The notes under the pieces are model-generated. The model made no database searches, was not told where the DNA came from, and worked only from the letters and a program-made list of their open reading frames with translations. Shown one piece after another: positions 1,314-4,160 of a DNA stretch of 5,581 bases. The DNA comes from a virus, in the IMG/VR virus record IMGVR_UViG_3300045988_004930. The stretch is one strand, 5' to 3'. Each line of letters opens with the position of its first letter. Positions within the stretch are counted from its first letter, which is position 1. Position numbers and translations under genes: made by a program.

Positions 1314-2120
1314 ATGGGATTAGCAGCAATCGGCAGCGCGCTACTCGGAATCGGCAAACAACTACTTCCAACGATCGCCGGAGGATTCATAAACAAATTC
1401 ATAGGCGGAAACCTGATGGAGAGCAACGGGGGGAGCAGTCAGCACAACGAAAGCACAAGCCAGGGAGGCGGCCAAAGCAGCAGCGCCAGCGGCGTAAACC
1501 GAGAACAGAACCTACAAGACTGGAACAGCATGCTAAGTGCAATTCAAGGCAATATGCAAAGCCAACAGAAGTTTAACCGTCGAAGCATGTTCGAACAGAT
1601 GGGCTATAACACCATGGCGGCAATCACTCAGGGTGTATATAACCAAATAAGCAACAACGCAGCAATGTCCTACAACAGCGCACAAGCAGCCAAAAACAGA
1701 GCTTGGCAAGAGCAAATGAGCAATACATCTTATCAGCGAGCTGTGGAAGACATGCGAAAAGCCGGCATCAACCCTATCTTAGCGTATCAGCAGGGCGGAG
1801 CAAGCACTCCGGGAGGTGCACAGGCTACCATCAGCGGCGCGAGCATGGGTCTCCCAAGCAGTAGTGCGGCAACAGCAAGCGCTCTCGGAGTAAGCCAAAA
1901 CCACAACAACACATGGAGCAAAAGCGAAAGCAACTGGTACAACGCAGCACAAGCGGTTGGAGACGCTACAAGCTGGTCGCACACAAGCGCAGACAAAGCG
2001 TTAAAGGCGTTCGAAAACGTCCTGGGCCAGCTGGGAAGCCTCACAAACAACAATTCCAAAGACAGATCAACGAAAGACAAAGACGGCTTTGGAGGAAGCC
2101 AAGGAGGAAAATTTAAATAA
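1314..2120 (+). CDS. VP2 minor capsid / DNA pilot protein (268 aa)
   Basis: Hydrophobic N-terminus MGLAAIGSALLGIGKQLLPTIAGGF, a G/S/Q/N-rich low-complexity body, and the conserved gokushovirus VP2-type segment SYQRAVEDMRKAGINPILAY. The ORF-track start at 1248 is GTG and lies inside the hairpin cluster. ATG 1314 is the first ATG and follows the hairpins. Stop TAA at 2118-2120. Confidence 0.82.
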   Translation: MGLAAIGSALLGIGKQLLPTIAGGFINKFIGGNLMESNGGSSQHNESTSQGGGQSSSASGVNREQNLQDWNSMLSAIQGNMQSQQKFNRRSMFEQMGYNTMAAITQGVYNQISNNAAMSYNSAQAAKNRAWQEQMSNTSYQRAVEDMRKAGINPILAYQQGGASTPGGAQATISGASMGLPSSSAATASALGVSQNHNNTWSKSESNWYNAAQAVGDATSWSHTSADKALKAFENVLGQLGSLTNNNSKDRSTKDKDGFGGSQGGKFK

Positions 2121-3139
2121 TGGGGTGTAACAAACCGTTAATCCGGTTTTATGTACCTCACGATAGAGAGGCGAGTGGGCGAGTGTACTCACTCGCTTCT
2201 TTTAACAAGATTCATAAAACCAAAATGAAGTATGAAGACCTGATGTACCGTAAAGATGTAATGATGATACCGTGTGGACAATGCACAGGATGCAAACTAC
2301 GCAAACGCAAAGACTGGGCAACACGAATGGAGCTGGAAGCATACGGCCACAACAAAGAAAGCATCTGGTTCATCACACTGACCTATGATGACAACCATGT
2401 GCCAACACAGGACACGGAAACAGGGGAAATCTTCAAGGGAGGCGTGAATGTATGGAGAGACGCCTCAGAGCGTCCTAGAACGGTGCAAACTTTAAGCGTG
2501 GAGGATGTCCAGTTATTCATGAAAAGGCTTAGAAAGGCCGTCAGCGAACCTCTCAGGTACTTTCTGGCAGGAGAGTACGGGGACAACACCTCAAGACCAC
2601 ACTATCACATGATATTGTACGGATGGAATCCAGACGACTTAAAGCCGATTCATAGGCTGTCAAGGTTTGGACACTACACGAGCGATAAACTGGTCAAAGT
2701 CTGGGGACAAGGAACAGTTGACATAGCTCAAGCAACGCCAGAAACGTATAACTACGTAGCTGGATATGTGACCAAGAAGCTGTACGGAAACGACAGAGAC
2801 AAGTATAAGAAAATGGGACTCATGCCGCCATTCTGCGTAATGAGCCGAAAGCCAGGACTCGGAGACGAATGGTTCCAAAAGAACCAAGAGAGGCTATGGC
2901 AACTTGGATACATCCAGCTGACAAACGGCAAGAGAGCAGCCATTCCAGAATATTACTGGCGAAAGCTGGAAGCTGAAAATCCTGAAAAGGCGTGGAGAAT
3001 CAAGCAGTATCGACAAGAGAAAGCCATTGCGTCCCTAATCGAAAGAAACATGGAAACTGACAAACGGTATGCCGAACAAATGGCCGATAAAGAAGCAATC
3101 ATGAAGAAGAAGATGTCCAAAGCAAAGGGCGTTTTTTAG
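2120..3139 (+). CDS. VP4 replication initiation protein (phiX174 gpA-like HUH rolling-circle endonuclease, 339 aa)
   Basis: Motif I FITLTYDD. HUH motif RPHYHMILYG (HYH codons at 2600-2608). Two-tyrosine motif YNYVAGYVTKK (2747-2779, YxxxY as in phiX174 A protein). N-terminal IPCGQCTGCKLRKRKDW cysteine cluster. SD aaggagga at 2101-2108. The ATG overlaps the VP2 stop (TAATG). Confidence 0.95.
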   Translation: MGCNKPLIRFYVPHDREASGRVYSLASFNKIHKTKMKYEDLMYRKDVMMIPCGQCTGCKLRKRKDWATRMELEAYGHNKESIWFITLTYDDNHVPTQDTETGEIFKGGVNVWRDASERPRTVQTLSVEDVQLFMKRLRKAVSEPLRYFLAGEYGDNTSRPHYHMILYGWNPDDLKPIHRLSRFGHYTSDKLVKVWGQGTVDIAQATPETYNYVAGYVTKKLYGNDRDKYKKMGLMPPFCVMSRKPGLGDEWFQKNQERLWQLGYIQLTNGKRAAIPEYYWRKLEAENPEKAWRIKQYRQEKAIASLIERNMETDKRYAEQMADKEAIMKKKMSKAKGVF

Positions 3140-3148
3140 CTCTGGTGT

Positions 3149-3197
3149 CACTCAGCCAAGTAACTATCAAGTATATATACTTGGCTGAGTGTTTTTT
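3149..3197 (+). terminator. Rho-independent terminator after rep
   Basis: cactcagccaagta (3149-3162) pairs perfectly with tacttggctgagtg (3178-3191). This is a 14-bp stem with a 15-nt loop (actatcaagtatata), followed by TTTTTT (3192-3197), 10 nt after the Rep stop. Confidence 0.8.
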
Positions 3198-3207
3198 AGG
3201 TTTATCA

Positions 3208-3250
3208 GCACGCGCACGCACGCGCACGTAATCGCGCACATGCGCGCGCG
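3208..3250. repeat. Alternating purine-pyrimidine CG/CA tract (Z-DNA-prone) with tandem CACGCGCACG x2 and internal inverted repeats
   Basis: Perfect R-Y alternation at 3208-3230 (23 nt) and 3233-3250 (18 nt). CACGCGCACG occurs at 3209-3218 and 3219-3228. aatcgcgc (3230-3237) is the reverse complement of gcgcgatt (3246-3253). The tract is followed by the AT-only run atttttattatattattattta. Confidence 0.85.
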
Positions 3251-3278
3251 ATTTTTATTATATTATTATTTACTTGTT

Positions 3279-3293
3279 GTAGTCGTAGTAGTA
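3279..3293. repeat. Short trinucleotide repeat (GTA)5 with one variant unit, preceded by a (TTA)-rich tract at 3251-3272
   Basis: gta gtc gta gta gta read directly at 3279-3293. Confidence 0.8.
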
Positions 3294-3298
3294 GGGAG

Positions 3299-3474
3299 TG
3301 TTGAAATGTTGAATACTATAAATTTTTATCCTTGGAACGATATTTTGTGATTAATTTTGATGTTGATAATTTTGTGGAAAACTTGTTAAATTGTTGAAAG
3401 TGTAGCAATATGCACAAAACCATTTGTGCAACTTTTTGTGGAAAACCTGTTGAAAGTGTTGAAAGTGTTGAAAA
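3299..3474 (+). repeat. Iteron-like array: eight same-orientation TGTTGAAA-type 8/9-mers plus a duplicated 18-mer TTTTGTGGAAAAC(T/C)TGTT
   Basis: TGTTGAAA 3299, TGTTGAAT 3307, TGTTGATA 3361, TGTTAAAT 3384, TGTTGAAAG 3392, then a perfect tandem TGTTGAAAG TGTTGAAAG TGTTGAAAA at 3448-3474. The 18-mer occurs at 3370-3387 and 3434-3451 (17/18 identical, 64 bp apart). Confidence 0.9.
3411..3430. promoter_or_regulatory. Perfect palindrome TGCACAAA-acca-TTTGTGCA (candidate operator, recombinase core or DNA hairpin)
   Basis: The 8-bp arms are exact reverse complements around a 4-nt spacer. It sits between the two 18-mer copies. An extra half-site, ATGCACAAAA, recurs at 3597-3606, just upstream of the -35 box at 3612. 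Confidence 0.6.
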
Positions 3475-3483
3475 AGCAATTAA

Positions 3484-3633
3484 GGCCGTCCGGCGAGCGA
3501 AACCGGAAAGTCACGTCATGCTCTTCGTACGGCGCACCGCGCCTAGCGCATGACCTTTTAGATGAACGGAGATGCAAAACAATTCGATTGGGAAAAATGC
3601 ACAAAAGAGGCTTGACGAGCCTCTTTTTTTTTT
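3484..3633 (+). ncRNA. Candidate small structured RNA (or ssDNA complementary-strand origin): GC-rich hairpin block plus intrinsic terminator
   Basis: 3484-3555 is about two-thirds G+C (48/72) inside AT-rich flanks. Hairpin A is tccgg 3489-3493 / ccgga 3503-3507. Hairpin B has an outer stem gtcatgc 3515-3521 / gcatgac 3548-3554 and a nested stem ggcgc 3531-3535 / gcgcc 3539-3543. The terminator hairpin is at 3603-3627, followed by T10. There is no credible ORF and the upstream promoter is only weak (TTGTTA 3383-3388, 17 nt, CAATAT 3406-3411). This call is a hypothesis. Confidence 0.25.
3603..3633 (+). terminator. Strong rho-independent terminator (possibly bidirectional)
   Basis: aaaagaggct (3603-3612) pairs perfectly with agcctctttt (3618-3627) around the 5-nt loop tgacg. 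The T run extends to 10 T (3624-3633). The upstream A-tract gives a U-tract on the opposite strand too. Confidence 0.8.
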
Positions 3634-3640
3634 ATATACT
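3612..3640 (+). promoter_or_regulatory. Near-consensus sigma70-type promoter for the small-gene/VP3/VP1 operon
   Basis: -35 TTGACG (3612-3617, 5/6), exactly 17-nt spacer, -10 TATACT (3635-3640, 5/6). The predicted transcription start is near 3647. The next SD-preceded gene starts at 3827. Confidence 0.55.
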
Positions 3641-3826
3641 AAAGGCAGTTAAACAGCTCAGAAGTACATTTAACGAATTCCATTTTTACAAAAATAACTT
3701 TACGAAAGAGGTGAATTGCTCTGACCATCCAAAAAATCAAAACGCTGTTTAACAACATCCAGAAAATCCTTGCAATGCTGGACAAAATCTACCATGCCGT
3801 AACAAACAACGGACAGGAGACTTAAC

Positions 3827-4057
3827 ATGATGGAGACCAAACCGTGGAATGTAAGAGATCAGACCGACGAGAACCTTATGCAGGAGTTGACGAAAATCTA
3901 CAAAGCGATAGACGCCGCATACAGTATGATTCGAAAGGCCGCAACAATCGAAGACGCAAAGTATTATATTGACCTTGCGTTCCGAAAAAAAGCACTCGCC
4001 AGCAACATTGAGGTGGAAATCCTCAGAAGGGAAATCAACCATGGCAAAGAGGAGTAA
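3827..4057 (+). CDS. Hypothetical small protein, 76 aa, predicted helical. First gene of the post-IGR operon.
   Basis: ATG 3827 is preceded by SD aggag (3815-3819, 7-nt spacer). The ORF is uninterrupted and its 3' end overlaps the next gene by 17 nt. I recognise no family. Confidence 0.6.
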   Translation: MMETKPWNVRDQTDENLMQELTKIYKAIDAAYSMIRKAATIEDAKYYIDLAFRKKALASNIEVEILRREINHGKEE

Positions 4058-4160
4058 AGTACGCAAGTCGAAAGACGCAAAAATCTACAACAAGACCGCA
4101 CGCAAAACCAAGGCTATTAACCTTGGCAGCGGCGCAATGAGAGGAGGCATCCGACTGTGA
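4041..4160 (+). CDS. Small basic DNA-binding / packaging protein (J/VP8-like, 39 aa)
   Basis: MAKRSKVRKSKDAKIYNKTARKTKAINLGSGAMRGGIRL is extremely K/R-rich and has the C-terminal MRGGIRL-type ending that I recall from small DNA-binding proteins of gokushovirus-like genomes. The ORF-track start at 3969 is TTG without an SD, so ATG 4041 is preferred. Confidence 0.68.
   Translation: MAKRSKVRKSKDAKIYNKTARKTKAINLGSGAMRGGIRL

Follow-up and report, generated by a model that had tools for sequence, protein, structure and literature searches.

The virus record IMGVR_UViG_3300045988_004930 is a stretch of 5,581 nucleotides (hereafter, the window) that represents a gokushovirus genome, circular and complete at 5,482 nt, plus a terminal redundancy of 99 nt. 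Downstream of its VP4 gene lies an array of short direct repeats. We argue that this array belongs to a larger module, at 3251-3474, which is fairly probably a compact mimic of a host chromosome origin. The mimicked origin would be of the basal unwinding system (BUS) type, and the module would act on the phage's replicative form, which is double-stranded. The array most likely binds the host's DnaA, rather than the viral Rep protein or Xer recombinases. The BUS of bacterial oriC was reportedly described by Richardson in 2016 and 2019, with DnaA boxes, a GC-rich spacer, DnaA-trios, and an AT-rich DNA unwinding element.

Eight same-orientation words of the form TGTT[GA]A[AT][AT] had been described at 3299-3474 in an earlier note on the window. 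They account for every + strand match in the genome (starting at 3299, 3307, 3361, 3384, 3392, 3448, 3457, and 3466), and the - strand has a single match, at 2207. First-order Markov resampling, which preserves dinucleotide frequencies, gave means of 0.38 matches for the 687-nt intergenic region and 0.64 for the AT-rich segment 3260-3480, with a maximum of 5. The enrichment over an AT-rich background, which the note had proposed as a check, is thus clear: 8 matches were observed and 0.4-0.6 were expected. When we counted 9-mers with at most one mismatch to TGTTGAAAA or TGTGGATAA instead, 9 of the 10 matches on the + strand lay inside 3299-3474 and there were none on the - strand; the resampling mean for the segment was 0.65.

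The finer structure of the array needed some correction. The three-unit tandem at 3448-3474 repeats the 8-mer TGTTGAAA without error every 9 nt; it had been claimed to be perfect for the 9-mer, but the units are TGTTGAAAG, TGTTGAAAG, and TGTTGAAAA, so the third ends in A and 26 of 27 bases match. The pair of 18-mers is as described (17 of 18 bases identical, at 3370-3387 and 3434-3451, 64 nt apart, on either side of the palindrome at 3411-3430). However, their quasi-palindromic core, TTTTGTGGAAAAC, is not a separate element: most relatives read TTTGTTGAAAAC here, which is another iteron. Because these cores are repeat units, the window has ten units, not eight, and their consensus is TGTKGAAAA. 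Nor does the functional unit begin at 3299; it reaches left to 3251.

The module is widely conserved among microviruses. A pattern scan of IMG/VR found it in at least 114 microvirus genomes, with one module in each, and we aligned first 16 relatives and then 111 unique modules. Among the matches listed, the carriers encode VP1 proteins that are 37-86% identical and VP4 proteins that are 30-96% identical to the window's. Megablast matched several phages in parts of the module alone (3251-3561 or 3360-3474), their genes being too diverged. Wherever its position was examined, the module adjoins VP4, either just downstream of it or between VP2 and VP4. Its parts come in a fixed order in the 111 modules: an AT-rich run, the invariant ACTTGTTGTAGnnGTAGTAGTAG, a 4-nt G-rich spacer, and two abutting units, and then a spacer that varies, four units, a palindrome whose sequence is not fixed, and four further units. 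The modules have an average of 8.6 same-orientation boxes (range 4-10) and 0.1 inverted boxes, so the repeat number and spacing, whose conservation the note had left to be examined, are kept in relatives. Among the at least 114 matches listed, the module lies on the gene strand in 103 genomes and is inverted in 11. Since both orientations occur, action on duplex DNA seems more natural than action on the packaged single strand.

The repeat unit resembles a DnaA box. Its reverse complement, TTTTCMACA, is a DnaA-box variant, and TGTGGAAAA fits the relaxed consensus TTWTNCACA; the boxes that read TGTGGAAAA or TGTGGATAA and fit this consensus number 164 in the 111 modules. At the site that corresponds to the window's box at 3373, close relatives carry a perfect DnaA box, TGTGGATAA; several distant relatives have TGTGGAAAA in the trio-proximal pair. 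At position 4 of the box, G and T interchange at homologous sites, and T at this position is native to clostridial origins.

The boxes also stand in the context expected of a BUS. We took the BUS sequences and the orientation rules from the supplement of Pelliciari 2021, which writes the BUS 3' to 5', and reversed them to 5' to 3'; the consensus for DnaA-trios, 3'-GAT-5', is then 5'-TAG-3' (PMC8287927). In this direction, the BUS of Bacillus subtilis reads AT-rich region, TAGTAGAAGTAATAGTAG, GGCC, TGTGGATT, TGTGGATAA; that of Clostridium acetobutylicum includes TAATAGTAGTAG, GGAG, TGTGGATT, TGTTGATAA; and that of C. botulinum reads (TAG)6, GGCT, TGTTGATA, TGTTAATAA (PMC8287927). The trios of C. 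difficile, as the reverse complement, are TCATAGTAGTAATAGTAGTAGGTG (PMC7561715). The window resembles the B. subtilis and clostridial systems in the order of the elements, the polarity of the trios, the TAG trios themselves, the 4-nt spacer, the 12 nt between the upstream box and the trios, the AT-rich flank, and the presence of further boxes upstream. The spacer is identical to that of C. acetobutylicum, and an 8-nt box abutting a 9-nt box is common to the window, B. subtilis, C. acetobutylicum, and C. botulinum.

Under the published rules, a box should lie 0-16 bp away from the trios and differ from TTATCCACA, or from a species-specific box, at no more than 2 positions; at least 3 trios in a row should have a central A, with 3'-GAT-5' favored beside the box; the spacer averages 4 bp, and the upstream box most often lies 12-13 bp from the trios (PMC8287927). 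In the window, the distal box of the proximal pair is 12 bp from the trios (an 8-nt box plus the 4-nt spacer). The three trios nearest the box are all TAG. Their polarity is also as in the rules: 5'-TAG-3' is on the TGTGGATAA strand, 5' of the box, and the same is true of the Ruminococcus albus-type oriC that we describe below. In relatives, TAGnnG stays in frame. Beyond the trios, the candidate AT-rich unwinding element is at 3251-3272, which is the position of the AT-rich region in the origins of B. subtilis, clostridia, and R. albus. The least stable 40-mer of the genome is 3251-3290 (a free energy of -40.4, compared to a mean of -54.5 and a standard deviation of 4.1). The features of the module and its flanks are listed in the table.

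Features of the module and its flanks (window coordinates; conservation refers to the 111 unique modules)
Feature	Position	Strand	Observations
GC-rich alternating purine-pyrimidine tract, CGCGCACGCACGCGCACG...CGCGCACATGCGCGCGCG	3200-3250	+	hairpin at 3230-3253; fold z = -5.2
Candidate DNA unwinding element, 22 nt of A/T only	3251-3272	.	longest A/T-only run of the genome
Invariant ACTTGTTG block	3272-3279	+	directly 5' of the trios; at least 90% conserved
Five DnaA-trios, TAG TCG TAG TAG TAG	3280-3294	+	GTAGTAGTAG invariant
G-rich 4-nt spacer, GGAG	3295-3298	+	consensus 'gg..'
Tandem BUS-proximal pair, 8-nt box TGTTGAAA and the adjoining 9-nt box TGTTGAATA	3299-3315	+	
AT-rich spacer of variable sequence	3316-3360	.	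poorly conserved in alignments
Second array, four same-orientation boxes: TGTTGATAA (3361), TGTGGAAAA (3373), TGTTAAATT (3384), TGTTGAAAG (3392)	3361-3400	+	
Inter-array palindrome, TGCACAAA-ACCA-TTTGTGCA	3411-3430	.	
Third array, four abutting boxes: TGTGGAAAA (3437), TGTTGAAAG (3448), TGTTGAAAG (3457), TGTTGAAAA (3466)	3437-3474	+	
GC-rich multi-hairpin element, CCGG...CCGG; GTCATGC...GGCGC-ACC-GCGCC...GCATGAC	3480-3560	+	directly 3' of the box array

The module does differ from a bacterial BUS. Bacterial systems lie beside dnaA, while this one is in a 5.5-kb single-stranded DNA (ssDNA) virus. It is compressed into about 225 bp, its boxes all have one orientation, it has the extra invariant ACTTGTTG, and its proximal boxes are weak by E. 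coli standards. It is not a chromosomal oriC proper, as it lies between VP4 and small phage open reading frames (ORFs) on a circular 5,482-nt microvirus genome.

The dialect of the boxes points to a particular group of bacteria. In R. albus 7, the oriC boxes are TGTTGAAAA-ACC-TGTTGAAAA, and the proximal box of Butyrivibrio is TGTTGAAA (PMC8287927). The R. albus 7 box TGTTGAAAA is exactly the phage unit. When we searched metagenomes with the R. albus 21-mer, we found 104 loci, four of which (L208, L226, L234, and L258) lie between dnaA and dnaN; at 90% identity, the DnaA of L226 clusters with that of R. albus. We read these origins on the strand opposite to the dnaA-to-dnaN direction. All four then show an AT-rich region, TAG TAT TAG TAG TAG, TGTG, and TGTTGAAA-ATGTTGGAAA; they continue with about 330 bp of same-orientation TGTTGRWW boxes, including TGTTGAATTGTT, and end in ATGTTGAAAAACCTGTTGAAAATGTTGA. 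The unwinding ends of the phage modules and of the R. albus-type origins are 81% (the window) to 88% (relatives) identical over 43 nt. Similarly, the terminal array of the window is 87% identical over 31 nt to the dnaA-proximal array GAAAAACCTGTTGAAAATGTTGA, and that of the relative L118 is 88% identical over 43 nt. The phage module and these origins have in common the order of their parts, the TGTTGAAA(A) dialect, the five trios with a deviant second trio, and the single orientation of the boxes; also, TGTTGAATTGTT and the GAAAA(A)CCTGTTGAAAnTGTTGA arrays are at corresponding ends, and the second phage array holds TGTTGAATTGTT. On the other hand, the R. albus-type origins are about 450 bp long, their spacer is TGTG, many of their internal boxes are more degenerate, and ACTTGTTG is absent from the dnaA-dnaN origins that we compared.

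Both the box dialect and the strong Shine-Dalgarno sites of the phage (AAGGAGG, upstream of both VP1 and VP4) suggest that the host is likely a Ruminococcus-like member of the Firmicutes. More broadly, hosts could be assigned to uncultured gut microviruses from sequence alone, by comparing the dialect of their boxes and trios with that of bacterial origins.

Two side observations concern the R. albus-type sequences. First, these origins also have palindromes just before the terminal box array (in L226, viewed as the reverse complement, CGGGATATCCCG). Second, the R. albus-type 21-mer TGTTGAAAAACCTGTTGAAAA occurs in tandem arrays with a 24-nt period and up to 5 copies on five metagenome contigs (L183, L192, L252, L232, and L248), on which we did not detect any homologue of DnaA or DnaN. 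These arrays may be iteron origins of plasmids or phages that use the same box dialect.

If the module works as a BUS, then host DnaA would occupy the ten same-orientation TGTKGAAAA boxes, which are of the Ruminococcus-type dialect. By analogy with the oriC of B. subtilis and clostridia, a DnaA oligomer would nucleate at 3299-3315, cross the GGAG spacer, and extend onto one strand of the TAG trios (3280-3294). The oligomer would then melt the 22-nt A/T run at 3251-3272, which is the weakest duplex. We can only speculate about what the open bubble would be for: it might allow the host helicase to be loaded, with theta-type copying of the replicative form, or it might expose single-stranded DNA to VP4, with ACTTGTTG as the candidate site. 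Our data cannot separate these two options.

A more ambitious proposal, about which we are tentative, is that a lineage of ssDNA phages captured or convergently built a working host oriC, so that the host's DnaA would start the replicative form. If so, a theta-replicating mini-chromosome could give gut microviruses that lack an integrase a plasmid-like carrier state that is tied to the host's cell cycle. Alternatively, melting by DnaA would license nicking by VP4, at the invariant ACTTG/TTG that lies next to the trios. Either way, an ssDNA rolling-circle virus would depend on, or manipulate, the chromosomal initiator of its host, which is not described in the literature that we searched. That literature also does not address how gokushoviruses start replication or how those without an integrase persist in gut bacteria. 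The module offers a testable answer: it points to a protein (host DnaA) and its exact sites, to the strand that this protein would bind, and to the position at which the duplex would open.

Several points weigh against this reading. Microviruses that replicate by rolling circles, such as phiX174, have no known need for DnaA. The two trio-proximal boxes of the window each have 3 mismatches to the E. coli consensus TTATCCACA and pass only with the Ruminococcus-type motif. (As boxes, TGTTGAAAT and TGTTGAATA each have 3 mismatches to TGTGGATAA and 1 to the R. albus-type TGTTGAAAA, while the TGTGGAAAA of distant relatives has 1 mismatch to the consensus.) That motif was in turn predicted computationally, by Ori-Finder/DoriC and the BUS program, and because the R. 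albus motif was used to find the R. albus-type origins, there is ascertainment bias in which host appears to be closest. The BUS model does not explain ACTTGTTG, the palindrome between the arrays, or the spacing, which is fixed at about 109 nt. The phage's own DNA-binding protein, VP5, could in principle bind the repeats. Finally, we infer DnaA binding, unwinding, and the firing of the origin from the sequence.

DnaA boxes are not new to mobile replicons. In P1 oriR, pSC101, F, and R6K, as well as in the 'A site' primosome hairpin, a mobile replicon likewise recruits the DnaA of its host. P1 oriR, pSC101, F, and R6K combine a few DnaA boxes with the iterons of their own initiator. As far as we know, DnaA-trios have not been described in such plasmid or phage origins. 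In contrast to these plasmid and P1 origins, the microvirus module copies the entire unwinding grammar of a chromosome, and its carrier is a rolling-circle ssDNA phage. Our literature searches turned up no paper on gokushoviruses together with DnaA, or on Microviridae together with 'DnaA box'. Judging by titles and abstracts, none of the papers listed for gokushovirus and 'origin of replication' is about a gokushovirus origin, and none of those listed that name DnaA-trios and phage is about phage genomes. The DnaA box-trio unwinding module is known as a class of mechanism, but a conserved cassette of this kind in rolling-circle ssDNA phages appears to be new.

We also considered whether the boxes might serve as a DnaA sink or switch. 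With about ten boxes on each copy of a high-copy replicative form, the phage could titrate DnaA, as datA does, and block or retime initiation by the host; or the occupancy of the boxes by DnaA could gate phage transcription or a switch between stages of replication. The evidence from the boxes is the same as for the origin mimic, and the boxes are numerous and tightly packed in a module that is found in either orientation. However, a pure sink has no need for trios, a 4-nt spacer, polarity, or an A/T flank that is the weakest duplex, and all of these are conserved. As for a transcriptional switch, the sole strong promoter-like site (3612-3640) is about 140 nt from the nearest box. We therefore consider a sink or switch to be unlikely.

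Another explanation is that the repeats are iterons for a phage protein, either Rep (VP4) or VP5, and mark a rolling-circle origin, as in rolling-circle replication (RCR) plasmids and CRESS-DNA viruses. Like those origins, the module has direct repeats beside the Rep gene and a hairpin near (indeed inside) the array, and VP5 matches a PHROG family that is labelled 'DNA binding protein'. The earlier note favored a binding platform of this type at an origin unlike that of phiX174. The platform itself holds up, as a conserved array in one orientation beside an easily melted region, but Rep is a poor candidate for the protein that binds it. Rep proteins and their iterons normally co-vary, and the unit in these modules is unchanged across carriers whose VP4 is 30-96% identical to the window's, including those at 30-55%. 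Furthermore, the dialect, order, spacing, and trios are those of a bacterial origin.

The hairpin also differs from those of the RCR plasmids and CRESS-DNA viruses, which have the nick site in a conserved loop. The inter-array palindrome keeps its position, and in 66 of the 111 modules its stem is perfect over at least 6 bp, but its sequence differs between clades. There are at least 4 unrelated stems (TGCACAAA/TTTGTGCA, TTCGTCA/TGACGAA, ACTTTAC/GTAAAGT, and TGTTAAA/TTTAACA). The loops vary as well (ACCA, AACC, AAA, TTAG, T...), so there is no constant nick-site sequence in them.

A candidate for a phage-specific site is ACTTGTTG, which was not part of the search pattern that gathered the modules and yet is invariant. 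It resembles CAACTTG, the core of the phiX174 nick site, and it is possible that ACTTGTTG is the VP4 nick site. It is confined to the module, and relatives have two copies at a fixed distance of about 109 nt. (The second copy in the window is at 3380-3387, as ACTTGTTA.) However, the 11 genomes listed with an inverted module have no copy of ACTTGTTG on the gene strand; if the nick site is in the module, then these genomes would package the opposite strand. The origin of phiX174 is a 30-nt site inside gene A that is nicked by protein A. The two phages belong to the same virus family and have homologous HUH initiators, and the ACTTG core beside an AT-rich stretch may be common to both. But phiX174 has no iterons, DnaA boxes, or trios, and its origin is inside the Rep gene, whereas the element here is intergenic and invertible. 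Overall, we think that iterons for a phage protein are quite improbable, and an array that binds host DnaA accounts better for the conserved layout.

The TTGAAA within each unit is close to the -35 consensus, so the array could instead be a cluster of -35 boxes or UP-like elements for the downstream genes. One pair, TTGATA-18-TAAATT at 3363-3392, looks like a promoter, but it is weak and is the only 9/12 match inside the array; the whole window has 3 promoter-like sites, compared to 5.3 in shuffled sequences. Conservation covers the full TGTKGAAAA rather than its TTGAAA core, and a period of 8-10 nt leaves no room for -10 partners. Also, the array points away from the genes in the 11 genomes listed with an inverted module. 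A promoter cluster, which the note had raised in passing, is therefore very unlikely. A Bacteroidetes-type promoter (TAnnTTTG at 3352 and 3367) was considered separately and rejected: the spacer where these motifs lie is poorly conserved, and Shine-Dalgarno sites as strong as these speak against a Bacteroidetes host.

We give almost no credence to the suggestion that the array is a Xer-type recombination site (dif, difSL, or difH) for lysogeny. It is true that the XerD arm of E. coli dif ends in TGTTAAAT and that 3369-3399 matches difSL at 21 of 31 ungapped positions (of this difSL sequence, just the two arms were checked against a paper). A dif-type site has two inverted arms that flank a center of 6-11 bp (PMC5357621). 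The module has direct repeats throughout, with just 0.1 inverted boxes per module, and the quasi-palindrome of the 18-mer is not kept in relatives. Nor did we find a prophage junction when we scanned 185,579 species genomes (one per species) for exact matches to the invariant 20-mer CTTGTTGTAGNNGTAGTAGTAG. Of the 26 hits, 25 lack the module and are mostly in high-GC or repeat-rich DNA that is consistent with coding sequence (for instance, in Glycomyces). The other hit, L055 (CAVKUS010000079.1; 5,739 nt), has the module and is a free microvirus-sized contig of 5.7 kb. It was binned as 'Bacteroides sp. CAG:545', which is probably a binning artefact and not evidence about the host.

A Spo0A box (TGTCGAA) was rejected because the box census of the 111 modules includes no unit with C as its fourth base.

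Modules of this kind are also present in other phages. We scanned for a canonical-box pattern, TAGTAGTAGNNNNTGTGGATW, and there were no microviruses among the matches, so the microviral modules are specific to the TGTKGAAA dialect. Textbook modules were found on large double-stranded DNA (dsDNA) phage contigs from IMG/VR (L097, L119/L143, L175, and L176; L286, L295-L297, L321, L329, and others). These have an AT-rich region, TAGTAGTAG, a 4-nt spacer, and either TGTGGAAA-TGTGGAAAW or TGTGGATAA-TGTGGATAA, plus further boxes. In the canonical-box scan, no homologue of DnaA or DnaN was detected on any of the 51 contigs, and 18 of the 51 hits had at least 3 boxes within 300 nt. In the first scan, genes for Prim-Pol, RecT, or PD-(D/E)XK proteins were near the module on three dsDNA phage contigs. 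Mimicry of origins may be common among phages.

Each side of the module has a GC-rich element. The tract on the far side of the A/T run keeps a cgcgcacgc motif in at least 60% of the 111 modules. Its role would be that of a GC-rich boundary for the AT-rich element, and the tract, which abuts the A/T run, may be prone to forming Z-DNA (near 3200-3253). On the other side, the multi-hairpin element at 3480-3560 hardly varies among 54 microvirus genomes, which encode VP4 proteins about 40-96% identical to that of the window. One of them, L085, has two compensatory pair changes (GTTGTGC/GCACAAC). None of these 54 carriers has an inverted module. The element appears to be a module separate from the box array, and it is a candidate for a single-strand (complementary-strand) origin or a structured RNA.

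The + strand of the genome carries all of the genes. VP1 runs from 4956 across the junction to 1171, VP2 ends at 2120, and VP4 (2120-3139) is an HUH initiator that is homologous to that of phiX174. VP4 is followed by the non-coding stretch of about 690 nt (3140-3826) that houses the repeat array, and then by small ORFs for a 39-amino-acid basic peptide, VP5, and the scaffold protein VP3. The nearest relatives in GenBank are gokushoviruses from human, pig, and monkey feces, and none of them has an annotated feature in the non-coding stretch. We consider four ORFs in this region (3189-3350, 3351-3479 on the - strand, 3410-3553, and 3426-3752) to be spurious, as their conservation is repeat-like and not codon-like; ORF 3426-3752 has no match in PHROG. 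A permissive Rfam scan of the whole window left the intergenic region empty, and a scan of the window for tRNAs and tmRNAs found none.

Other structures and one small gene in the window were also noted. Between VP1 and VP2, at 1235-1312, there are two GC-rich hairpins that are built on CCTCAGCTGA repeats. The second of these is terminator-like (AGCCCGGGG...CCCCGGGCT plus a T-run). The sole Rfam hit, anti-hemB, is in the same place and was rejected: it scores far below the gathering threshold, and the simplest reading is that these are two terminator-like hairpins. Another terminator-like hairpin follows VP4 (3149-3191). Just upstream of the small ORFs, the window's best promoter-like site (TTGACG-17-TATACT, 3612-3640) overlaps a further hairpin with T10 (3603-3637). 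Finally, the 39-amino-acid peptide at 4041-4160 (MAKRSKVRKSK...) is highly basic and matches phrog_10695 (E = 6e-9). Its DNA is 84-86% conserved in two gokushoviruses that are otherwise unmatched (MT135259 and MG945388), and it is probably a DNA-packaging protein that is analogous to J of phiX174.

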